From NCBI GenBank assembly GCA_041390685.1, contig JAWKPL010000001.1, positions 2,545,269-2,609,268 on the forward strand: a stretch of DNA of 64,000 bases, read 5' to 3'. Origin of the DNA: Dehalococcoidia bacterium (GTDB taxonomy: Bacteria > Chloroflexota > Dehalococcoidia > UBA2979). Positions 9,150 to 27,994 of the stretch are shown in pieces; within the stretch, counting starts at the first letter, position 1, and each line of letters begins with the position of its first letter. A program made the position numbers and the translations under genes. Below the pieces are notes generated by a model. The model was not told the origin of the DNA and did no database searches. It saw only the letters and a list, made by a program, of their open reading frames with translations.

Positions 9150-9647
9150 ATGGCGCAGTCGAACGCGCAGTCCGGCATCCGCCTCGAGTTGCTCTGGCTC
9201 CTCGCACTCCTGCTCTCGCTCCTGGCCGTCGTGACATGGCGCTTCGCGCTCGCCCCCGGCGACGACGAGCCCGCCGCGGGTGCCGCCACCGCCACGCCGG
9301 CCGCAACCTCCGCCGCGGTCCGCGTGTGCGGCGAGGAGGTCGACAGCCCTGGCTCCGAACTGAACCTCGCGGCCCGCGAGTGTCTGCTTGCCGCGGCGCC
9401 CACGGGCGAGCGCGTCGACTTCACCACCACCCGCTTCACTGTCGAGGGCCAGCCCGTATACTGGCGCGTCCGCGTCCTCGCCTGGGGGGACATCGAGGTC
9501 ACCATCGACAACCGCGCGGATGAGTTTTCCGGCCCTGCGCGCCGCCGCATCCTCACCCACCGCTGCACCTCGCTCGCACGCTCCGCGACTGAGGAACACC
9601 GCATCGATGTGCTCGGCTGCACCGGCGGCGAAAGCCTCACCTTCTAG
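9150..9647 (+). CDS. hypothetical membrane-anchored/secreted protein
   Basis: 165 aa from ATG at 9150. N-terminal hydrophobic helix LELLWLLALLLSLLAVVTW. No recognisable domain. Confidence 0.45.
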   Translation: MAQSNAQSGIRLELLWLLALLLSLLAVVTWRFALAPGDDEPAAGAATATPAATSAAVRVCGEEVDSPGSELNLAARECLLAAAPTGERVDFTTTRFTVEGQPVYWRVRVLAWGDIEVTIDNRADEFSGPARRRILTHRCTSLARSATEEHRIDVLGCTGGESLTF

Positions 9648-9895
9648 TCCGGCAGGCCGTCGGACGAGGTCTCATCGCCAGGCACAACAACACGGATAGA
9701 AATGTCGGAAGTAATCGCACAGCGCCCGAAGTGCGGACGTGATAAAGAAACGCATCTCCGTCAACACGATCGATGGTGAATATTTGACTTTGTGATGGGT
9801 AAACCACCGCAACCGTCGATCGTGATTTGAAGTTATCCATCCGCAGCAATTACGGTTTCTCGCGCGGCAACACGCATTTCCAGAGGGGAGACCAT

Positions 9896-17570: not shown

Positions 17571-18175
17571 CGAATAGCCTCGGACGCCGCGCCGTCGTCG
17601 ACCGCGAGACCGCGGAGACCCGCATCCACGTCGACCTCCAGGTCGACGGCCGCGGACTCGCCACCGTCCGCACGGGCATCGGCTTCTACGACCACATGCT
17701 GAGCGCCTTCGCGAAGCACGGCCGCTTCGACCTCGAACTGACCTGCGAAGGCGACCTCGAGGTGGACGCGCACCACACGATGGAGGACTGCGCCATCGCC
17801 CTCGGCGCCGCCTTCGACCGCGCCCTCGGCGACCGCGCCGGCCTGGTGCGTATGGGCGACGCCCTCGTCCCCCTGGACGAGGCGCTGATTCAGGCCGCCA
17901 TCGACCTCTCCGGCCGCCCCTTCGCCGCCATCTCGCTCGCCTTCGGCGGCGAGCGCATCGGCGAGGCCCCCACCGAGATGGTCGCGCACGTGCTGCAGTC
18001 GTTCTCCGTCGGCGCGCGCCTCACGCTGCACGTCCGCCAGCTCTCCGGCGCCAACGACCACCACATCGCCGAGGCCACGATGAAGGCCCTCGGACGCGCC
18101 CTCGATGCCGCCACCCGCCCCGACGACCGCATCGCCGGCGAAGTCCCGAGCACGAAGGGCACCCTGACGACATAA
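17567..18175 (+). CDS. hisB: imidazoleglycerol-phosphate dehydratase
   Basis: 202 aa with IGPD motifs (IGFYDHMLSAFAKHGRFDLELTCEGDLEVDAHHTMEDCAIALG). Confidence 0.95.
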   Translation: MTNSLGRRAVVDRETAETRIHVDLQVDGRGLATVRTGIGFYDHMLSAFAKHGRFDLELTCEGDLEVDAHHTMEDCAIALGAAFDRALGDRAGLVRMGDALVPLDEALIQAAIDLSGRPFAAISLAFGGERIGEAPTEMVAHVLQSFSVGARLTLHVRQLSGANDHHIAEATMKALGRALDAATRPDDRIAGEVPSTKGTLTT

Positions 18176-18179
18176 CCGG

Positions 18180-19070
18180 TCAGCGTGACGCAGCGCCGAT
18201 GTGCACCAGCACCTCGGCGATACCGCCCACCTCCCCGCGCAGCCTCGCATCGACGGCCTGAGCGATCGCGTGCGCCTCCTGCACCGTGAGTCCGGGATCG
18301 ACGTGGATATGCAGGTCGACGCGCACCTGCCCCGGCTCGCCGCGCGACCGCACGGCATGACAGTCCTCGACACCGGCGACGCCACACGCCAGGAGGCGCA
18401 GCTGCTCCACATCCAGCGGGGTCACATCCGTGAGCGTCGCCGCGGCGTCGCGCACGATCGACCAGGCGCGCCATGCCACCACGCCGCCCATCACGAGTGC
18501 GACGAGGGGGTCGAAGCGCAGCAGCCCGCCGTAGCTGGCAGCGATGCCCGCCAGCACAGCGATCGCCGCCACTGCATCGGCAAGGCTGTGGGTCGCCTCG
18601 GAACGCAGGATCCGGCTCGACAGGTGCGCGTCTGCTCGCCGGAGCACGAGGAACAGCCCGCCGTTGGCCGCCGCCGACGCGGCCATCAGCGCGATCCCCC
18701 ACCCGCCCCGCGAGACCTCCTCCGGATGGATCAGTCGGGGGATCGCGACCGCCGCGATCAGCCCGACGGCCGCGAGGAGCAACATGCCGATCACGAGTGC
18801 GCTCAGCGACTCGAAGCGCTCGTAGCCGTAGGGGTGCCGTGCGTCGGCCGGTCGCGTGCTCAGCCAGATGCCGCCCAGCGACGAGACGTGCGCCGCCGCG
18901 CCGATCGTGACGTGCACCGCACTGGCCGTGATCCCGGCGCTACCGGTGAACCACGCGCCGCCGAACTGCGCCATCGCCAGGAGCGCGTGCACACCGACGG
19001 CCAGTGCCAGCGGTCGCACGAGCGCACGCCGTCGCTGCGCCCCCGTCTCCCGAGACGGCCCGCCCTGCAT
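18180..19070 (-). CDS. cation diffusion facilitator family transporter
   Basis: 296 aa from ATG at 19070. 6-TM CDF core (HPYGYERFESLSALVIGMLLL, SEATHSLADAVAAIAVLAGI) with C-terminal cytoplasmic domain. Start overlaps the stop of the upstream ZIP gene by 1 nt (TGATG). Confidence 0.85.
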   Translation of the reverse strand: MQGGPSRETGAQRRRALVRPLALAVGVHALLAMAQFGGAWFTGSAGITASAVHVTIGAAAHVSSLGGIWLSTRPADARHPYGYERFESLSALVIGMLLLAAVGLIAAVAIPRLIHPEEVSRGGWGIALMAASAAANGGLFLVLRRADAHLSSRILRSEATHSLADAVAAIAVLAGIAASYGGLLRFDPLVALVMGGVVAWRAWSIVRDAAATLTDVTPLDVEQLRLLACGVAGVEDCHAVRSRGEPGQVRVDLHIHVDPGLTVQEAHAIAQAVDARLRGEVGGIAEVLVHIGAASR

Positions 19071-19855
19071 CACGCCACCTCCATCGAGGCGAGGCCGTAA
19101 AGGCCGGGCAGTGACAGCGCGAAGAGCCCGGTCAACACCAGCTTCTCGCGAAGACCAATGGGCTCGCGCAGCTCGGGCAGGAGGTCGCTGCTGGCGATGT
19201 AGATGAAGTTCCCCGCCGCGAACGGCACAAGCAGCTCCGTGTCGATCCCTCCCGATGCCACGTAAGCCACGAGCGCGCCCACGAGGAACGTGAGGCCGGA
19301 GAGCAGGTTGTACGTGAGCGCCTGCCGCTTCCTCCAGCCCCGGCTGACCAGGATGCCGAAGTCGCCGAGCTCCTGAGGCACCTCGTGGGCCGCGGCGACG
19401 AACCACGTAACGATGCCAAGGCGGGCGTCGATCAAGAACGTACCCGCGACGGCGATGCCTCCAAGCAGGTTGTGCAGCCCGTCGGCCAGCAGGATCAGAT
19501 AACCCAGCGGCTCGTGGGCAGCCACGAGGCGGTGCGAGTGGTGCCAGTGCAGGAACTGCTCAAGGAGGAAGAAGACGACGAACCCCGCCGCGAGCGATCC
19601 GTACACCGGCAGTTCGTTGCCGATGTGATCGACCGCCTCCGGCAGCAGGTGAAAGAGCGCCCCGCCGAACAGCGAACCGGCGGCCACCGCCACCAGCGGG
19701 TTGAGCAACCGGTCGAGCCACCGCGGGGGCAGCACCAGCGTCACCGCACCGCTCAGCGCGATCGCCGACATGGCGAGCCCGCCCGCCACGATCCAGGCGA
19801 GCTCACTCACACGCGACCTCGCGCGTTGGCACGGTCCCGCGTCGCGCAAGACCAC
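19070..19855 (-). CDS. ZIP family metal transporter
   Basis: 261 aa, ZupT-like (HEVPQELGDFGILVSRG, HNLLGGIAVAGTFL). Probable GTG start at 19855. Confidence 0.8.
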   Translation of the reverse strand: MVLRDAGPCQRARSRVSELAWIVAGGLAMSAIALSGAVTLVLPPRWLDRLLNPLVAVAAGSLFGGALFHLLPEAVDHIGNELPVYGSLAAGFVVFFLLEQFLHWHHSHRLVAAHEPLGYLILLADGLHNLLGGIAVAGTFLIDARLGIVTWFVAAAHEVPQELGDFGILVSRGWRKRQALTYNLLSGLTFLVGALVAYVASGGIDTELLVPFAAGNFIYIASSDLLPELREPIGLREKLVLTGLFALSLPGLYGLASMEVA

Positions 19856-19903
19856 GCGCGCAGCACAGCACGGCGCTCCACCGGCCGGGACTCCGACGCG
19901 TCG

Positions 19904-20380
19904 TTACTCGACGAGGCTGCGGAGCATCCAGGCCGTCTTCTCGTGCACCTGCAAGCGCTGGGTAAGAAGGTCTGCGGTCACCTGATCGTCGGCAGACTCC
20001 GCAGGCGCGAAGGCGCCGCGAATGGTCTGAGCGACAGCCTCATGTCCGGCCAGCAGTTCCTCGATCATCGCGCCGGCGTCCGGCACTCCATTCGGTTCCC
20101 GGATCGAGGTCAGCATCATGAACTGCCGGTACGTCGCCGGGGCGTGCGCTCCCAGCGCTCGGATCCGCTCCGCGACCAGGTCGGTCGCGAGCCACAGCTC
20201 GTTGTACTGCTCCTCGAACATTAGATGCAGTTCGCGGAACCGCGGCCCCGTCACGTTCCAGTGGAAGTTGTGGGTCTTCAGGTACAGCGTGAACGTATCC
20301 GCGAGCACGGGACCCAGCGCCTCGGCGACTGCGGCGCGGGCCGCTGCCTCGCCAGTCGCCACGTCCTGTCGGTCGACCAC
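19904..20380 (-). CDS. dps: Dps family DNA-binding ferritin-like protein
   Basis: 158 aa (LADTFTLYLKTHNFHWNVTGPRFRELHLMFEEQYNELWLATDLVAERIRALG). Confidence 0.9.
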   Translation of the reverse strand: MVDRQDVATGEAAARAAVAEALGPVLADTFTLYLKTHNFHWNVTGPRFRELHLMFEEQYNELWLATDLVAERIRALGAHAPATYRQFMMLTSIREPNGVPDAGAMIEELLAGHEAVAQTIRGAFAPAESADDQVTADLLTQRLQVHEKTAWMLRSLVE

Positions 20381-20651
20381 AGTGGTGTCCCTCCTTGAAT
20401 CCGCACCCGCCAGGTCCGCGACCGCATGCGCTCGGGAGCGCAGCGACGAGGAATTCCCCGGTCACCGGCGGTCGAGGGGTTCAGAGGTTCGATAGTCATC
20501 GCTCGGCCGGATCGGCCGCGCCACCTGCCTCGACGCCATGCCCATCATGACAGCGGTGATCGAGGACTGCCGCCCCCTTCGTCGCTGCTTCCGGGAACCG
20601 ATCGTCCTGAACCTGCTCAATCATCCGTCCGGCCGGCAACACGCGAGACGG

Positions 20652-21251: not shown

Positions 21252-21656
21252 ATGAACCTCGACTACGCGTTTCTCTGTGACAGCGCCCAGGAAGGCGGCG
21301 GGAAGGTCCACGCCCTCGGCATCGGTTTCGACACCATCGCCGCCGCCGGGGCCCCCGTGACCCACCCCCTGCTCACCGTGGTCCTTCAGCTCCGCTACTC
21401 GGTCGCCGAGGCCGGCGACAAGGCGCTCTCCGTCCGCCTCATCGACGCCGACGGCCGCAACGTCGTGAACCCCGTCGACCACACGGTGCCCTTCCCCTCG
21501 CCCGAGGGCGCCCGCACCAACACCGCGCGCCTCATCGTCGCCTTCGCCGGCGTCCAGTTCGCCGCCTTCGGCGACTACGCCGTCCACGTCACGGTAAACG
21601 GCGGCGAGATCGCCAGCCTCCCGCTGTCGCTCGTTCCCGCCGCGCCCCCCGCATGA
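21252..21656 (+). CDS. hypothetical protein
   Basis: 134 aa, no recognisable motif. Stop overlaps the start of the downstream IMPase-family gene (ATGA), suggesting co-translation. Confidence 0.4.
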   Translation: MNLDYAFLCDSAQEGGGKVHALGIGFDTIAAAGAPVTHPLLTVVLQLRYSVAEAGDKALSVRLIDADGRNVVNPVDHTVPFPSPEGARTNTARLIVAFAGVQFAAFGDYAVHVTVNGGEIASLPLSLVPAAPPA

Positions 21657-22468
21657 CGCCCGACCTGCTCGCCTTCGCCCTCGAGCTCGCCGACCTGGCC
21701 GACGGCATCACGATGCGCCACTACCGAGGCGGCGGCGACGTCTGGCGGAAGGCGGACGGCACCCTCGTGACGCTCGCCGACACCTCCGCCGAGTCCGCCA
21801 TCCGGGCTCGCATCCTCGAACGCTTCCCCGCCCACGCCATCGAGGGCGAGGAGGAAGGCCTGAGCCTCCCCCCCATGCCGATGGACGACCCCGCCCAGGC
21901 CACCCCGCCCCCCGGCCGCGTGCAGTGGATCGTCGACCCCATCGACGGCACCCATAACTTCGCCCGCGGCGCGCCCGTCTGGGCCACGCTCATCGCCTGC
22001 GAGGTCAACGGCCGCCTCGAGGTCGGCGTCGCCTCCGCCCCCGCCCTCGGCGCCCGCTGGTGGGCCGCCCGCGGCGAGGGCGCGCACCGCCGCGACGCCC
22101 TCACCGGCGTCACCGAGCGCATCCACGTCTCCACCCGCGCCCGCATCGAGGACGCCCAGGTCCTCTACGGTTCCTACACCCTCACCACGGCCGCCTGGGG
22201 TGGCCGCGCCGACGCCCTCCTGCGCGCCAGCTGGCGTCAGCGCGGCTTCGGCGACTTCTGGGGCCACTGCCTCGTCGCCGAAGGTGTCGCCGAAGTCATG
22301 CTCGAGGGCGAAATCGCCCCCTACGACATCGCCGCCCTCATGGTCATCGTGGAAGAAGCCGGCGGCCGCATGACCGACATCGAGGGCGTGGCGCGCATCG
22401 ACGCGGGGCACTGCATCACCACGAACGGCGTGGTGCATGAGGAAGTGCTGGGGGTGCTGCGGCGTTGA
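21653..22468 (+). CDS. inositol monophosphatase family protein, candidate histidinol-phosphatase (HisN-type)
   Basis: 271 aa. IMPase motifs (WIVDPIDGTHNFARGAPVWATLIA, EEE.. metal ligands). Near the his operon. Its 3' 190 bp is duplicated downstream at 23215-23409. Confidence 0.75.
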   Translation: MTPDLLAFALELADLADGITMRHYRGGGDVWRKADGTLVTLADTSAESAIRARILERFPAHAIEGEEEGLSLPPMPMDDPAQATPPPGRVQWIVDPIDGTHNFARGAPVWATLIACEVNGRLEVGVASAPALGARWWAARGEGAHRRDALTGVTERIHVSTRARIEDAQVLYGSYTLTTAAWGGRADALLRASWRQRGFGDFWGHCLVAEGVAEVMLEGEIAPYDIAALMVIVEEAGGRMTDIEGVARIDAGHCITTNGVVHEEVLGVLRR

Positions 22469-22500
22469 CGGGCCGACATCGCCCGCCGCCTACTCGCTGA

Positions 22501-22917
22501 CTACACGTGTACGATCCGGGCCGGCAGCCCGAGCGCCGAGCGCCAGGGCCATCTCCGGTCGGTCGTCAGGATGACGTCCGCGTCCAGCACCACCGCCGTC
22601 GCGATCACCAGCGCATCCGGAAGGCGTAGCCGCGACCCGTGCCGCGCCCTCAGCACGGCCGCCGCCTCCGCGACCGCCTCGTCGAGCGGCACCACACGCA
22701 CAGGGAAGCGGCCAACGAACGCCCGCACCTGCTCGACTGCTGCATCGCCACGCCGGCTCGGTCCGACCAGCACCTCCGCATAGGCTGAAGCTGCAAGCGC
22801 GAGACTGTCCCCTGCGGCGCTGGCCGCCGCGAGGGCCTCTCGGGCGGGGGCATGGTGCGTGTCTGCGGCGTCGAGGAACGCGATCAGGACGCCGGCATCG
22901 AGGACGATCAGGCCCAT
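22501..22917 (-). CDS. vapC: type II toxin VapC (PIN domain ribonuclease)
   Basis: 138 aa. MGLIVLDAGVLIAFLD...acidic PIN residues. Overlaps the vapB 3' end. Confidence 0.85.
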   Translation of the reverse strand: MGLIVLDAGVLIAFLDAADTHHAPAREALAAASAAGDSLALAASAYAEVLVGPSRRGDAAVEQVRAFVGRFPVRVVPLDEAVAEAAAVLRARHGSRLRLPDALVIATAVVLDADVILTTDRRWPWRSALGLPARIVHV

Positions 22918-23159
22918 TCGCCCCGCAAGCGCTCAAGCTCGTCGCGCTCATAGACACCGGTGAGACGGCCGGCAAACTCCGCGATGACATCGGCCTCACG
23001 CTGCAGCACCACGCGCCCGGGCCCCTCGACGGTCGCCACGAGGCGTTCACCGACGTGCAGCCCTGCCTCCTCCATGGCGCGCACGGGGATCGTGACCTGG
23101 TGTTTGCGACTGATGCGGGTACGCTGTGTGGCGCGACCACCATTCTTTACTTCACTCAT
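22908..23159 (-). CDS. vapB: type II antitoxin VapB (AbrB/MazE/SpoVT fold)
   Basis: 83 aa from ATG 23159 (MSEVKNGGRATQRTRISRKHQVTIPVRAMEEAGLHVGERL...). Swapped-hairpin antitoxin motif. 4-nt overlap with vapC. Confidence 0.75.
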   Translation of the reverse strand: MSEVKNGGRATQRTRISRKHQVTIPVRAMEEAGLHVGERLVATVEGPGRVVLQREADVIAEFAGRLTGVYERDELERLRGEWA

Positions 23160-23196
23160 GAAAGTAAAGCTACCGTGCTGCCGCCCTCGCCGCAAG

Positions 23197-23409
23197 CAGC
23201 GATCGGCGACATGGTGCTCGCCTCCACGTCGCCGAAGTCATGCTCGATGGCGAAATCGCCCCCCCTGCGACATCGCCGCTCTCATGGTCATCGTCGAAGA
23301 AGCCGGCGGCCGCATGACCGACATCGAGGGCGTGGCGCGCATCCACGCGGGGCACTGCATCACCACGAACGGCGTGGTGCATGAGGAAGTGCTGGGGGCG
23401 CTGGCATAG
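23197..23409 (+). pseudogene. degenerate duplicated 3' fragment of the IMPase-family gene
   Basis: About 190 nt nearly identical to 22275-22468 (cgccgaagtcatgctcga...gaagtgctggggg). Has a +2 nt indel (C5 to C7 run, tac to tgc) and a few substitutions. No start codon. Encodes ...DIAALMVIVEEAGGRMTDIEGVARIHAGHCITTNGVVHEEVLGALA. Confidence 0.65.
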
Positions 23410-23454
23410 ACGAGTGCTTGGCGGTCTCGACGTCGATACCATATCGTTAGCGCC

Positions 23455-26400
23455 ATGACTAATCGTCTCCCAAATGTCGATTTCCGACAGATTCGGCCCT
23501 ATGGGCAGCCAGCTTCCCGATCGAGCGGGTTCGAGGAGCTCGCGTCGATCTTGATCGAGCATGGCGCGGTCGACTGGCCTAGCGGCACACGATTTCACCG
23601 CTTCGGGAACCCCGATGGCGGCCGTGAGGCGAAGGCTGTGCTCCCGAATGGGGACGTCTGGGCATGGCAGGCAAAGTACCTATTCGAATTCGATTCGTCT
23701 GCGGCCGGACAGGTGACTTCCTCAGTGCGCCGTGTTCTGGAGAGTGAACCGGACCTGAAGCGCTATTTCGTCGCTATGCCGCTAGACATGCCAGCAGGCG
23801 ACACGAAAGACCGCACGTCGGCGCACACGCGCTGGACTGAGAAGGTCTCTGAATGGGAGCAGCTTGCTCGCAAGAACAACCTTAACGTGGAGTTTGTCTT
23901 CGTCGGCGCCCATGAGCTCGTCACGACGCTAACTGAGGCTGAGCACGCTGGGCGCCTACGGTACTGGTTCGGCCTCGACATCTTGACCCCCGAATGGCAG
24001 GAACGTCGCCTTGAGGAGGCCAAAGCAAAGGCGGGGCGCCGCTATACGCCAAGCCTCCACGTGGAAGTGGAGGCAGTCCGGTCCCTCGATGCGGTCGGCC
24101 GCCGCGATGCTTACGTGTCACGATGGCAGGCGATCCTCGCCGAATTGAGGGAAGCCCGACGATGGACTTGGCGGCCGCCGAAGGACGCCGCTGACGAGTT
24201 TGCCGAGGCACTTCCTAAGTGCGAAGCCGCACTCGATGAGGCCGACGTGGCACTTGGACTCATGATTACCGCGGCCCGGTCGACGGAGGATCTTCCTCGG
24301 ATCGAGAGCCCGCTTAACCTCGCGATGGAAGCCGTAGGCGAGGCGGAAGAACTCCTTCACCGACACTCGTTGACCAAAGGCGGCTATTTCGTTGGAGATG
24401 CTGCCTCCCTGTACTCGCACATACGAGATGCGATCGGTGCGCTGTGGCAGGCCAGAGAACTCGCGAACGCCGCGGCGACACACGCGGCACGTGACAAGGT
24501 GCTTCTCGTAACAGGACGCGCTGGCGTCGGAAAGACGCATCTCCTATGCGATGTGGCGACTCGGCGAACTGCTGACGGGTACCCAACTGTTGTCCTTCTC
24601 GGGCAGGACTTCGATGGCAGGTCGCTACTCTCGCAAATCAGCGAACGGACACAACTCGGTGGGACACTGGACGACATCCTGGGTGTGCTCGATGCTGCGG
24701 CGGAAGCCTCCAGCTGCACTGCGCTCTTGATCATCGACGCGCTAAACGAGAGCGAACGTGCCGAGCGTTGGAGGGATGAATCTCGAGCTCTACTCGCCGC
24801 TGCCACCCGATTTTCTCACATAGCAGTAGTGCTGTCTTGCCGCTTGGAGTTCGTTGAAAAGGTCATTGGTGACCACCGACTGCCAACGGTCGAGCACGTC
24901 GGTTTTGCAGAAGCGACCGACGTTGCTGTTCAACGATTTACCCGGGAATTTGGGCTGGAGCCACCGACGTTCCCTCTGCTCAACCCGGAGTTCAGCAACC
25001 CGCTCTTCCTCAAGCTAACGTGTGAGGCCCTCTCAACGCTTGGGAGGACTCGCTTTCCCTTTGGTTCAGCCGGCCTCACTACGATATACGAGGTCTTCTT
25101 GGAGGCTGTGAACAAGCGGCTTTCCGAACCCCATCGCTGCGACTATGACGAGCACAGCGACGCAGTTGGCCAAGCGATACGAGAGATAGCGCTCCTCGGC
25201 CCCGGTCCGCTTGATCGAGCTGACGTGCAACGCATCACCGATAGGATTTTGCCCGGCCATTCGTGGTCTCGATCGCTGATGAACGGGCTGATCTCCGAGG
25301 GAGTCCTCCTGGAGATCTACGACAGGCGAATCGTCTTCGGGTACCAGCGGTTGGGAGACATGACGCGCGCGGGCGCAATCGCCGAGAGGGGTCCAGATGG
25401 CGTGCGCGCGTGGCTCCAGCAGCTCGACGACGATGTCTGGCGCGAGGCGGGGGTGTTGGCCGCGCTGGCCGTGATCGTGCCGGAGCGCCACGGCCAGGAA
25501 CTCGTCATCCTCGCCGCAGATGACGAAGGTAGGGTCTCATACCACATCGTCGACAGCTTTCTCGAGAGCCTGCTCCTTCGCGCCCCGGAGTCGATATCAC
25601 CACGCGCGGTCGAGATCGTTCAACGGTTGCTGGATGACGGACACCGCGTAGGCGAGATCTGGGATCGCCTGTTCCGTCTCGCCTGCGTGTCTGGCAATCC
25701 ACTAAACGCCGAATGGCTTCATGCTCGTCTCGCTGGCTATGAAGTGGCGGATCGTGACCGGATCTGGTCTGAATGGCTTGTCGACTCAGCGAGTCCCGAT
25801 GACGAGAGTCCCGTCCGCCGTCTGCTGGAATGGGCGTGGCCTGCAGACCTCGAAAGTCGCGCCCCAGTCCCCGACGATATCGCTAATCTCGCAACGCTTA
25901 CGCTTGGCTGGCTTCTGACAACCACTGATCGCCGCGTGCGAGATCGTGCGACCAAGGCGCTCGTGAGCGTCGGCGAACGAGCGCCGCAGGCCTTCGCCAG
26001 CGCCCTCAAGCGATTCCGTGGAACGAGCGACCCATACATTCTAGAGCGACTGGTGGCAGCTGGATGTGGCGTGGTCTTGAGGAGCAGCGATGCGAGCACT
26101 GTGCACGTTATCGCAGACGGCGTGCTGGAACTCCTTGCGGATGGATGGCCCGTGCACCTGATGACGCGGGACTACGCGCGACGCACCTTTGCCGTCGCAC
26201 ATACCCGCGGCTGGTCTGGCCCGGCATCCCTGCCACCGTACGGGGCGACTTGGCCGCTTCCGACGACCCCAGCCGACGAGATCGAAGTCCTCGCTGGACC
26301 ACCGGACTATGCCTACGCGTCGATCTGGCACTCACTCACCGGCATGGGCGACTTTGGCCGTTATATCCTGCAGTCCGCGCTTCGTAATTTCGAAACGAAG

Positions 26401-27639
26401 GATGCGGGAGCACTGCAGCGAGAGGCGGCGCAAGCGATATTCGATCGGGTGCTCGAGCTTGGCTGGACCCCAGAGCGTTTCGGCGAAATCGATCGGTCGC
26501 GACCAGGGGCCTCCAGGTTCAATCGCGTAGTTGAGCGAGTCGGTAAGAAGTATCAGTGGATCGGCTTCTACGAGGTACTGGGCCGCATCGCTGACCACCA
26601 CGGCATACAGCCGAGGTGGGGCGACGAAGAACGGGGGCCGTACGCGTATCCGGAGCAACTCGTGTGGCGCGACATTGACCCGACCGTACTCGTCCGCAAG
26701 CCCGCGCAGTCACCTACGCAGGAGCACCAGTGGTTTTCGCCGGTCGAGGCGCGTTTTCCGCCGGGCGTCTCTGACGACTACCCGATCGACATGAGCGGTG
26801 CCCCCGATCCATTGGACTTGATCGCAGTCTCCGATCCTGGCACCGCACAGTGGTTAGTCGTGGTCAGCGAGCCCGACTGGAAGCAGCCACTAGCGGTGGA
26901 GATCGAGGCACTGCGCGTACCGCGCCGCCAACTATGGATGGGCCTTCGCGCGTACCTCGTTCCGCTCGCCGACATGGCTGCACTGCGGGCGTGGGCTGGG
27001 GACAAGGACTGGTCGGATGGGTGGATGCCCGCGCTTCCGAATGTATCCAACGTGCTGCTGGGTGCGCATCCGGACGACCCCGCGTGGGCTGCGGCCGACG
27101 GACAGGTCGACGGGTGGCGCGGAAGGGACGGGCACATACCGCCCGTCGAGCTCATAGAAGTTGCTGCATGGTACGCCGGTACCGGCACCTCGCGGGATTT
27201 GTCTGCCGAGGACAAGACACTGGGGTACGTTCCGAGTAAACGATTGCTCGAGCTAACCGATCTCTCCAGTGGAGTCGATTTCACTTGGAGTGATGCCTTG
27301 GGCGTCGCTGTCTGCGATCCCAGCGCGACCTCAGGTGGCCCAGCGGCCCTCATCATGCGGCGCGATCTCGTGGCGCGACTCGCACACGCTGGACTGACCC
27401 TCTTCTGGACGGTGGTCGTTAACAGCGAGCTCCACCGCAGCGACTACTCAATTCCCGGTGACGACCATCGCTGGGTCAGCGCGACAGCCTCGTACATCCT
27501 CACCGGCGACCGGGTGGAGCTGATCGGTGCCAGAGCCTCCCGACTCCAGGCAGGGGCAGTGCGGGAGCGAGAAGTGAAGTGGTCCCCAAGGGCGATAGAG
27601 GACGAGGTCGGGGGCGCCGGCGCGCAGCATCGGAGATAG
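23455..27639 (+). CDS. large STAND/NACHT-type P-loop NTPase with N-terminal PD-(D/E)xK-like nuclease domain and C-terminal HEAT-like helical repeats; candidate Avs-like antiphage defense protein
   Basis: 1394 aa in a single uninterrupted ORF with visibly lower GC than its surroundings. N-terminal 170 aa has FEELASILIE...GNPDGGREAKAV...GDVWAWQAKY (D / ExK / QxK pattern). Residues about 345-470 have Walker A LLVTGRAGVGKTHLL, Walker B ALLIIDALNESE (hhhhDxxNE, NACHT-like) and sensor-1 IAVVLSCR. The C-terminal 850 aa is helical with HEAT-like repeats (RVRDRATKALVSVGE...). Confidence 0.75.
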   Translation: MTNRLPNVDFRQIRPYGQPASRSSGFEELASILIEHGAVDWPSGTRFHRFGNPDGGREAKAVLPNGDVWAWQAKYLFEFDSSAAGQVTSSVRRVLESEPDLKRYFVAMPLDMPAGDTKDRTSAHTRWTEKVSEWEQLARKNNLNVEFVFVGAHELVTTLTEAEHAGRLRYWFGLDILTPEWQERRLEEAKAKAGRRYTPSLHVEVEAVRSLDAVGRRDAYVSRWQAILAELREARRWTWRPPKDAADEFAEALPKCEAALDEADVALGLMITAARSTEDLPRIESPLNLAMEAVGEAEELLHRHSLTKGGYFVGDAASLYSHIRDAIGALWQARELANAAATHAARDKVLLVTGRAGVGKTHLLCDVATRRTADGYPTVVLLGQDFDGRSLLSQISERTQLGGTLDDILGVLDAAAEASSCTALLIIDALNESERAERWRDESRALLAAATRFSHIAVVLSCRLEFVEKVIGDHRLPTVEHVGFAEATDVAVQRFTREFGLEPPTFPLLNPEFSNPLFLKLTCEALSTLGRTRFPFGSAGLTTIYEVFLEAVNKRLSEPHRCDYDEHSDAVGQAIREIALLGPGPLDRADVQRITDRILPGHSWSRSLMNGLISEGVLLEIYDRRIVFGYQRLGDMTRAGAIAERGPDGVRAWLQQLDDDVWREAGVLAALAVIVPERHGQELVILAADDEGRVSYHIVDSFLESLLLRAPESISPRAVEIVQRLLDDGHRVGEIWDRLFRLACVSGNPLNAEWLHARLAGYEVADRDRIWSEWLVDSASPDDESPVRRLLEWAWPADLESRAPVPDDIANLATLTLGWLLTTTDRRVRDRATKALVSVGERAPQAFASALKRFRGTSDPYILERLVAAGCGVVLRSSDASTVHVIADGVLELLADGWPVHLMTRDYARRTFAVAHTRGWSGPASLPPYGATWPLPTTPADEIEVLAGPPDYAYASIWHSLTGMGDFGRYILQSALRNFETKDAGALQREAAQAIFDRVLELGWTPERFGEIDRSRPGASRFNRVVERVGKKYQWIGFYEVLGRIADHHGIQPRWGDEERGPYAYPEQLVWRDIDPTVLVRKPAQSPTQEHQWFSPVEARFPPGVSDDYPIDMSGAPDPLDLIAVSDPGTAQWLVVVSEPDWKQPLAVEIEALRVPRRQLWMGLRAYLVPLADMAALRAWAGDKDWSDGWMPALPNVSNVLLGAHPDDPAWAAADGQVDGWRGRDGHIPPVELIEVAAWYAGTGTSRDLSAEDKTLGYVPSKRLLELTDLSSGVDFTWSDALGVAVCDPSATSGGPAALIMRRDLVARLAHAGLTLFWTVVVNSELHRSDYSIPGDDHRWVSATASYILTGDRVELIGARASRLQAGAVREREVKWSPRAIEDEVGGAGAQHRR

Positions 27640-27704
27640 CCGGTGGACCCACAATCCACCGTTTCGACGTGGTCAGAGTCCCGCGTCTGCGCTCGTCCTC
27701 CCCC

Positions 27705-27938
27705 CTACCCCGCCACAACCTCCCCCACCTCATACCTGAAGTCCTCGATCACCGGGTTCGCCAGCAACTGCTCGCACATCGAGCGGATCGCCGCCTCCGC
27801 CGCCCCCGCGTCCGAGGCCTCCAGGGTCACCTCGATGCGCTTGCCCACGCGCACGGTGCTCACCCCCTCGAAACCCAGCGTGTGCAGGCCGTCGCGCACC
27901 GCCAGCCCCTGCGGGTCGTTCACCAGCGGCTTCAGCAT
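27705..27938 (-). CDS. purS: phosphoribosylformylglycinamidine synthase subunit PurS
   Basis: 77 aa (MLKPLVNDPQGLAVRDGLHTLGFEGVSTVRVGKRIEVTLEA...). Confidence 0.9.
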   Translation of the reverse strand: MLKPLVNDPQGLAVRDGLHTLGFEGVSTVRVGKRIEVTLEASDAGAAEAAIRSMCEQLLANPVIEDFRYEVGEVVAG

Positions 27939-27994
27939 CACATTGATTCGCGCTTGAAAGGTCGGCACGAGGGCTCCTCGCTGTTTGTGTGTCG

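Follow-up and report, generated by a model that had tools for sequence, protein, structure and literature searches.

The window analysed here, a stretch of 64,000 nucleotides (nt) from contig JAWKPL010000001.1 of a Dehalococcoidia bacterium (assembly GCA_041390685.1), contains a hisN-like gene whose 3' end recurs in direct orientation on the far side of a small vapBC toxin-antitoxin cassette (Table 1). The resident gene end is designated copy A and the downstream one copy B. By its alignment with the intact gene, copy B is a pseudogenised hisN 3' end lying just upstream of the vapBC control region, between the convergent core genes hisN and purS. We lean, somewhat more than evenly, towards reading it as a relic of recombination-driven turnover of cargo at an accessory hotspot between these two core genes. 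Comparison with related loci shows that the junction between vapB and the fragment arose once, before the split from the nearest sequenced relatives; that the sequence of the fragment has been overwritten by homologous exchange at least once; and that the cargo directly to its right has been replaced independently in different lineages, by avs2 here and, in sister genomes, by a truncated RHS gene followed by at least 9 kb of low-GC open reading frames (ORFs).

The repeated hisN gene end

BLASTN aligns copies A and B with 168 of 176 positions identical (95.5%, E=5e-80), the differences being six mismatches and a single 2-nt gap (CCCCC vs CCCCCCC). A repeat search returns the same pair as a 143-nt block and a 36-nt block, each at 97%, and a MAFFT alignment is concordant. 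The direct repeat of the IMPase-gene 3' end that a first-pass annotation of this DNA had described, with its 2-nt indel in a C-run and a few substitutions, is real by all three methods, and the similarity is neither much shorter nor much weaker than had been claimed. Its limits (22275-22468 and 23215-23409) had been drawn too wide: the core stands, but some 11-13 nt on the left and 6-9 nt on the right fall away. The only stretch shared in the left excess is a chance TCGCC; the right tails, CTGCGGCGTTGA and CTGGCATAG, each hold a terminal stop codon yet are non-homologous. Degraded homology to the left of 22286, where GGCGAC and CTCG..CC are shared, was considered and rejected, because the fragment of a sister genome (B', below) matches at ~89% as far as this position, beyond which the identity falls off sharply.

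Table 1. Features of the hisN-purS interval, in window coordinates
Feature	Position	Strand	Remarks
Intact hisN-like gene (IMPase-family histidinol-phosphatase)	21653..22468	+	271 aa; last gene of the his cluster
Repeat copy A, live hisN 3' end	22286..22459	+	BLASTN vs copy B; groups with the L088 and L081 gene ends
Spacer, hisN stop to vapC stop (convergent genes)	22469..22500	.	32 nt; identical in L088
vapC, PIN-domain toxin	22501..22917	-	138 aa; Pfam PIN E=1.5e-18
vapB, AbrB/MazE-type antitoxin	22908..23159	-	83 aa; Pfam MazE_antitoxin E=3e-5, 24.3 bits vs cutoff 24.7
Putative vapBC control region	23145..23204	-	palindrome and weak promoter candidate
Non-hisN junction segment GGCGACATGGTGCTCGCCTCCAC, directly left of copy B	23205..23227	.	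common to L088/L089/L090, with one A/G difference
Copy B, hisN 3'-end pseudogene fragment	23228..23403	+	2-nt insertion and 6 substitutions vs copy A
Left end of avs2 block	23405..23454	+	L081 homology begins at 23405
avs2 (AVAST type 2 antiviral STAND NTPase)	23455..27639	+	1394 aa; outside the repeat; begins 51 nt beyond the end of the copy B alignment
purS, right core-gene boundary	27705..27950	-	Pfam PurS E=2.8e-29

The ORF and Pfam reading bears out that vapC and vapB alone lie between the copies: the repeats delimit only this cassette (22469-23227, about 770 bp), and avs2 is outside. Repeat, BLASTN and tblastn searches detect no third copy of the hisN end in the window, and none was found in the L088 sequence reached; a degenerate third copy between the avs2 stop codon and purS was also considered, searched for and not found. 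Copy B is frameshifted, lacks the first 633 nt of the gene and has neither the native last codons nor the stop codon. Five of its six substitutions are private; at the remaining position (22351) it keeps the C that is also present in the resident gene end and the fragment of L088 and in the outgroups.

History of the fragment

The organism belongs to a high-GC lineage, and its closest relatives in the databases are metagenome-assembled genomes (MAGs) labelled Dehalococcoidia. The nearer related loci fall into two types. In type 2 (L088, L089 and L090, with his genes 99.1% identical to those of the window) the same 32-nt spacer leads from hisN to vapC and vapB, beyond which stands a hisN 3' fragment, B'; VapC of the window is 96% identical to P0121, which occupies the same position in all three. 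What stands to the right of B' in L088 is not avs2 but an N-terminally truncated RHS ORF whose start codon lies inside B', and beyond it come at least 9 kb of small ORFs of low GC (0.51-0.65) with no significant Pfam matches. In type 1 (L081, L095, L097 and L098, two MAGs and two further contigs, with HisN 92% identical to that of the window) the order is hisN, stop codon, about 117 nt, avs2 and purS, with neither vapBC nor a second hisN end. The RHS ORF (L088 7957-9623, on the minus strand of the locus) encodes 509 aa; it has YD repeats and the end of an Rhs core, together with a C-terminal tip that is short.

The left junction of the fragment is the same in L088, L089 and L090 as in the window, GGCGACAT(A/G)GTGCTCGCCTCCAC|GTCGCCGAAG, which makes a second, independent duplication implausible. 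L088 has about 90 nt (9624-9713, including a GACCGG/CCGGTC hairpin) more than the window at 23204/23205; these appear to have been either lost in the window or gained in L088.

The sister loci also bear on the possibility that the window is an assembly artefact, a chimeric join, through shared hisN k-mers, of strain variants carrying hisN-vapCB-fragment-RHS and hisN-avs2. The source is probably metagenome-derived (the clade is known only from MAGs), related contigs break inside purC and RHS, and the 2-nt indel sits in a homopolymer run. However, the vapCB-fragment arrangement is found in four independent assemblies. Nor does copy B represent a complete gene end, since five substitutions are private to it and the tail, the stop codon and about 80 nt of the avs2-type allele are gone. 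A switch from B' to A-type sequence would have to fall within the 10-nt GTCGCCGAAG, which is too short for a k-mer mis-join. We regard a chimera as very improbable indeed.

The history of the fragment was followed by aligning the 3' 183 nt of ten sequences and tabulating their variable sites; the site counts are small. The L088 fragment B' is 88.9% identical to the hisN gene resident in that genome (BLASTN), as against 95.5% for the pair in the window. At 17 core sites B' differs alike from copies A and B of the window, from the resident L088 gene end and from the uninterrupted gene end of L081. Several of its 17 states are those of outgroup hisN genes (P0002, P0003 and P0008), with seven read unambiguously, and its tail, VLRILR, is to be compared with VLRxLRG in the outgroups, whereas the A-type ends share a derived VLGVL tail. 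On these sites B' branched off before the gene ends of the window, L088 and L081 diverged, and its outgroup-like states make the fragment either old or derived from another lineage. Along its own lineage B' has changed little, with a 1-nt deletion and no more than about 10 of 176 sites altered, while divergence at third positions in the clade is ~12%; small as these numbers are, they favour a history in which B' was for the most part carried within a functional gene elsewhere.

Copy B of the window has none of the 17 B'-specific states and the A-type state at all 17. At four clustered sites (22390, 22405, 22408 and 22421) copies A and B have states in common that are absent from both L088 copies and from the L081 gene end, and copy B matches copy A at 10 of the 10 sites that separate A from L081. 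Taken together with the shared left junction, the missing B' states and the four sites peculiar to A and B indicate that copy B was overwritten after the split from L088, and this is why the two copies are 95.5% identical here and only about 89% identical in the sisters. Derived states that are shared within one genome and absent from sister orthologues are the pattern expected of gene conversion, although a hisN end from a conspecific donor would look alike. Delivery of avs2 by an L081-like donor, with a crossover in the fragment, was considered and rejected, the core of copy B being of the window A type at 10 of 10 sites; a conspecific donor is possible. Intact copy A looks like the lineage's own orthologue. 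The divergence of the window hisN from that of L088 is 6.1% in the 3' 183 nt and 2.8% in the 5' part (13% and 4%, respectively, at third codon positions), which is consistent with exchange at the hisN gene end.

These observations count against the first-pass interpretation of the repeat as the footprint of an element that integrated into the 3' end of hisN and restored it; the repeat is not a recent scar. L088, L089 and L090 share vapCB, the fragment and the left junction, and B', which is 88.9% identical to its resident gene, carries outgroup states. The ~96% identity in the window is due to later exchange between the copies, as the four window-only substitutions common to A and B attest. 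As for restoration of the gene end, copy A groups with the uninterrupted L081 end, and B' is the outlier along its whole length. A gene-restoring model predicts a live copy brought by the element and a native, displaced fragment; the reverse is seen here. The DNA to the right of the fragment is not contiguous native sequence either, being avs2 in the window and RHS in the sisters. It had been remarked that the window holds no integrase or recombinase, and none was found: no such Pfam match occurs in the 48 window ORFs scanned, which cover all but a few short stretches, nor in the 9.4 kb beyond B' in L088 (precomputed Pfam assignments and 10 rescanned ORFs).

A second copy of the hisN C-terminus was found by tblastn only in the window, L088 and L089, the L090 fragment, at a contig edge, being found by BLASTN. 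No second gene end is present at about 94 other hisN loci searched by tblastn; consequently, this is not a recurrent attachment site. A collection of species-representative genomes yielded no HisN above 49% identity, and none of those it did yield has a second gene end; there are no exact-protein matches of the window HisN or of PurS (in two start variants), and a DNA-pattern scan of metagenomes with a conserved hisN 3' 42-mer gave no matches.

The integration model in full, which we consider unlikely, would have a decayed site-specific element resembling e14 in icd bring vapBC and a replacement hisN 3' end into hisN by means of an integrase. Part of copy A would then stem from the element and copy B would be the native end, displaced; the integrase and most of the element would have been deleted later. 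Direct repeats of a gene 3' end around foreign DNA, with the gene left intact, are the architecture of icd/icdC (PMC13626634), and toxin-antitoxin pairs are common cargo of integrative elements (PMC5543033). The ancestral-type tail of B' and the derived one of the A-type ends could make B' native and the A-type sequence element-derived in the ancestor of the clade, and A-clade hisN genes are more diverged from P0002 in the 3' part than in the 5' part (16.7% vs 10.3%). Divergence from P0003 is normal, however (13.9% vs 12.0%), and the same A-type end terminates the uninterrupted gene of L081 and L095. No segment of B' is A-clade-like; the crossover would be needed right at the 3' edge, whereas an element that restores its target gene is built the opposite way. 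The lack of an integrase or recombinase in the window ORFs and the L088 island, the exchange of avs2 for RHS where conserved native DNA should be, and the failure of the site to be reused at the other hisN loci count against it as well. The variant that survives, an ancient integration in the clade ancestor with element-derived A-type ends and a native B', has a low probability.

A purely local origin, to which we attach a smaller probability still, would start from a tandem duplication running from the middle of hisN through vapBC, with the second vapBC deleted (or with vapBC inserted into the duplication), the fragment then decaying under occasional gene conversion. No foreign hisN is needed, the novel tandem joint would explain a left junction without homology, and gene conversion between the copies is independently required; B' also carries damage, such as the change of a conserved GGR motif to GAG and the 1-nt deletion. 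The position of B' outside the window, L088 and L081 ends nevertheless means that the duplicate must predate the clade, and its few changes and single indel seem a small tally for a sequence evolving neutrally for so long. The L081 lineage would also have to have lost both vapBC and the fragment, and the window holds no trace of a second vapBC. Local tandem duplication is possible, but it needs more steps.

Cargo turnover between hisN and purS

The order hisN...purS-purC-purB is conserved in relatives down to 66% HisN identity, and between hisN and purS six different contents are found across related genomes, the L088 type being seen from the hisN side only. Besides the two types described above, the interval holds three small genes in L082 (74% HisN identity), a HAD hydrolase in the P0017 contigs (70%; from gene tables) and a single 63-aa ORF in L099 (66%). 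Its different content in each lineage marks it as an accessory-gene hotspot bounded by core genes and, on gene content, one of the core-gene-flanked accessory/defence kind.

In the window the interval contains avs2. Its product matches PADLOC Avs2 model PDLC02164 (residues 6-982, E=9.6e-298) and another model that spans residues 8-1328, as well as NCBIfam Avs2 (E=2e-214; 715 bits, under the equivalog cutoff of 1000), and there is a weak Pfam match to AAA_16; with a full-length match and a central STAND NTPase it qualifies as a member of the Avs2 family, with a predicted antiviral role. It is 98% identical to P0241 of the hisN-avs2-purS loci. The avs2 block is 98-99.7% identical between the window (23405-27640) and L081 (10902-15140), while its flanks are only 75-96% identical, which suggests that avs2 was recently shared, horizontally, between lineages within the clade. 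In L081 some 80 nt, comprising the stop codon and intergenic DNA, lie between the hisN end and the position at which this homology begins (23405 in the window); they are missing from the window. GC content falls from about 0.72 to 0.57-0.66 across avs2. The next-best homologues of Avs2 are at most 70% identical, and several of the named sources are Actinomycetota.

The proposal that 22470-27700 was horizontally acquired is therefore upheld by the accessory interval, the GC dip and the avs2 identity, but not in the form of one repeat-bracketed element, the repeat spanning vapBC alone. The genes hisN and purS hold as boundaries of a hotspot and not of a single element defined by the repeat, and the low-GC STAND gene placed immediately after the second copy is indeed there, and is Avs2, but is no part of what the repeat brackets. 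In the related genomes the inserts vary, and the same fragment and junction accompany RHS cargo in L088, L089 and L090, which speaks against a fresh scar.

A course of events leading to this arrangement may be proposed. The founding entry was most likely integrase-free, with homology on one side only: a homologous crossover in the pur genes, combined with an illegitimate join upstream of vapB, would import a piece of donor hisN together with its downstream cargo. The locus bears marks of such one-sided recombination in that the left junction is non-homologous and shared, B' is not a copy of the resident gene, and both right junctions have suffered later deletions. [quoted passage not shown] In the window the overwriting template would be either resident copy A, through gene conversion, or, where avs2 came in from a conspecific donor, the hisN end of that donor. 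Copy B would subsequently have gained about five private substitutions and the 2-nt frameshift, and lost its tail, its stop codon and the about 80 nt kept in L081. From then on the fragment would offer about 175 nt of homology downstream of vapBC to hisN-cargo-purS DNA, and incoming crossovers may fall there rather than inside hisN. The toxin would penalise recombinants from which vapBC is lost, among them A x B pop-outs and those with crossovers in hisN; chromosomal toxin-antitoxin pairs stabilise regions (reviewed in PMC5543033). Core-gene-flanked defence hotspots without mobility genes are on record, and transfer by homologous recombination has been proposed for them (PMC10250203; see also PMC10121019).

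Several points weigh against cargo turnover as the origin of copy B. No donor lineage for B' was identified among the hisN sequences compared, and no genome with hisN-vapCB and without the fragment was found, which leaves the founding event not reconstructable. The left junction has no clear microhomology, and an old duplicate formed in situ, with ancestral states retained, would account for B' equally well. Copy A and a donor hisN end cannot be told apart as the overwriting template, the core being of the window A type rather than the L081 type at 10 of 10 sites. The fragment is carried by four assemblies, MAGs or short contigs, and the island of L088 is read to 9.4 kb beyond B', its far end being out of reach. 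The anchoring role of the fragment and the protection afforded by the toxin-antitoxin pair are what we infer.

Taken further, the turnover reading leads to a conjecture that we put forward with considerable reserve: the fragment and vapBC might together serve as a landing pad that works without an integrase. In it the fragment would provide a portable arm of homology on the left, which gene conversion with the live gene keeps usable, and the toxin-antitoxin pair would kill recombinants arising by hisN crossovers or pop-outs. Incoming hisN-cargo-purS DNA would in this way be steered to the downstream slot, swapping defence cargo (avs2 vs RHS) while the essential histidine gene is spared.

Among known systems, one of the closest is e14, the cryptic prophage in E. 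coli icd that leaves the C-terminal pseudogene icdC (PMC13626634, citing Hill et al. 1989). Both loci have an intact housekeeping gene and, downstream, a fragment of its own 3' end in direct orientation around foreign DNA, and recombination between the copies can delete the insert and yield a chimeric gene. In that account, e14 has an integrase, excises site-specifically and itself carries the live copy of the gene; the window yielded no integrase, its live copy falls together with the orthologous gene end of a relative that lacks the interruption, and only a 0.7-kb toxin-antitoxin cassette is bracketed, with variable cargo beyond the fragment. The effector-immunity arrays of Rhs, contact-dependent inhibition (CDI) and T6SS loci (PMC5361080) are similar in having a homology anchor on one side, in shifting older material downstream and leaving gene-end fragments behind, and in needing no integrase; the fragments can later serve as recombination substrates, and the sister fragment is fused to a truncated RHS gene. 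In those arrays, however, the repeated piece is part of the polymorphic toxin gene and an immunity gene is what is retained, whereas here the piece comes from an unrelated biosynthetic gene bordering the hotspot and a vapBC pair has been kept.

The core defence hotspots (cDHS) of P. aeruginosa (PMC10250203) and the hotspots of E. coli (PMC10121019) likewise occupy a fixed core-gene interval with varied defence and toxin cargo (here Avs2, VapBC, RHS and small ORFs of unknown function) and lack mobility genes, with one cargo gene near-identical across lineages whose flanks have diverged. The present case differs in coming from an uncultured, high-GC, Dehalococcoidia-like lineage with few genomes and an interval of 0.2 to >10 kb, and in that a core-gene fragment records part of the recombination history. 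Type II toxin-antitoxin pairs between direct repeats that would otherwise favour deletion are also known from RelBE and ParDE of superintegrons and MosAT of SXT (PMC5543033); by analogy with these, vapBC may be stabilising, although VapC and VapB lie below their family cutoffs, with the PIN domain clear.

Each component belongs to a known kind: VapBC, Avs2, a hotspot flanked by core genes, a pseudogene derived from a gene end, and gene conversion. What is modestly new is that they occur together in an uncultured lineage of Chloroflexota and that there is direct evidence of recombination in the fragment. The locus serves as a worked example of accessory and defence turnover between two core genes with no visible mobility gene. 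A near-identical gene-end repeat can be an old structure that gene conversion keeps young, so repeat identity alone is a poor clock for recent integration, and cargo-adjacent repeats should not be taken as island boundaries without comparative data. If the fragment does channel cargo, it would provide a simple mechanism for the building of defence hotspots that are free of mobility genes.

The vapBC cassette and the his cluster

The vapBC cassette has the make-up of a type II VapBC module, a predicted PIN toxin and a small, putatively DNA-binding antitoxin in an overlapping operon (the vapB stop overlaps the vapC start by 10 nt). The matches of VapC and VapB are below the NCBIfam and Pfam family cutoffs, the PIN domain itself being clear; VapB also matches the AbrB domain model TIGR01439 (E=1.4e-3). 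A perfect 8-nt inverted repeat, CTTTACTT/AAGTAAAG, lies across the vapB start (23145-23169), and there is a weak minus-strand promoter candidate, TTGCGG-17-TAGCTT, with its -10 at 23167-23172 and its -35 at 23190-23195. A consensus scan of 22300-23600 for promoters and terminators found none, and the vapBC promoter is accordingly put forward only as a candidate.

The palindrome and the hexamers recur in a vapBC cassette that is 85% identical but stands in an unrelated context (L091 1-993). That cassette lies ~240 nt upstream of a sequence resembling a tRNA 3' half at the contig edge, which is unconfirmed and received no ARAGORN call, probably because it is cut off; ARAGORN finds no tRNA in the window, L088 or L091. 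Conserved attC-like cassette ends were considered for vapBC and rejected, L091 sharing the coding region and operator only, and a metagenome DNA-pattern scan with a 30-mer of the vapB operator gave no matches. In L099 (9844-10520) a different MazE-plus-PIN pair is inserted in the same pur cluster, with purB on one side and a cupin gene on the other; judging by these loci, small toxin-antitoxin cassettes seem to enter the intergenic gaps of this region repeatedly.

The assignment of the hisN-like gene rests on Pfam Inositol_P (E=2.9e-42), on TIGR02067 HisN (228 bits, under its cutoff of 275) and on synteny, hisN standing with hisG, hisD, hisC and hisB in relatives whose homologues are labelled histidinol-phosphatase by their sources. 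Upstream, an uncharacterised DUF6941 gene (21252-21656) overlaps the hisN start in an ATGA at 21653-21656 and appears, from this overlap, to be translationally coupled to hisN as the last his gene. It also directly precedes hisN in L081, L082 and L088, is kept down to 70% HisN identity and is absent in L099. Finally, a 2.5-kb block at 18171-20649 is absent from L088, L089 and L081, where hisB (IGPD) abuts mgtC. It carries minus-strand genes for a cation-efflux (CDF) protein (18180-19406), a ZIP transporter (19070-19855) and a Dps/ferritin-like protein (19904-20380), the first two overlapping as listed, with uncertain starts. From this pattern of presence and absence, the his cluster would seem to contain a second variable islet.

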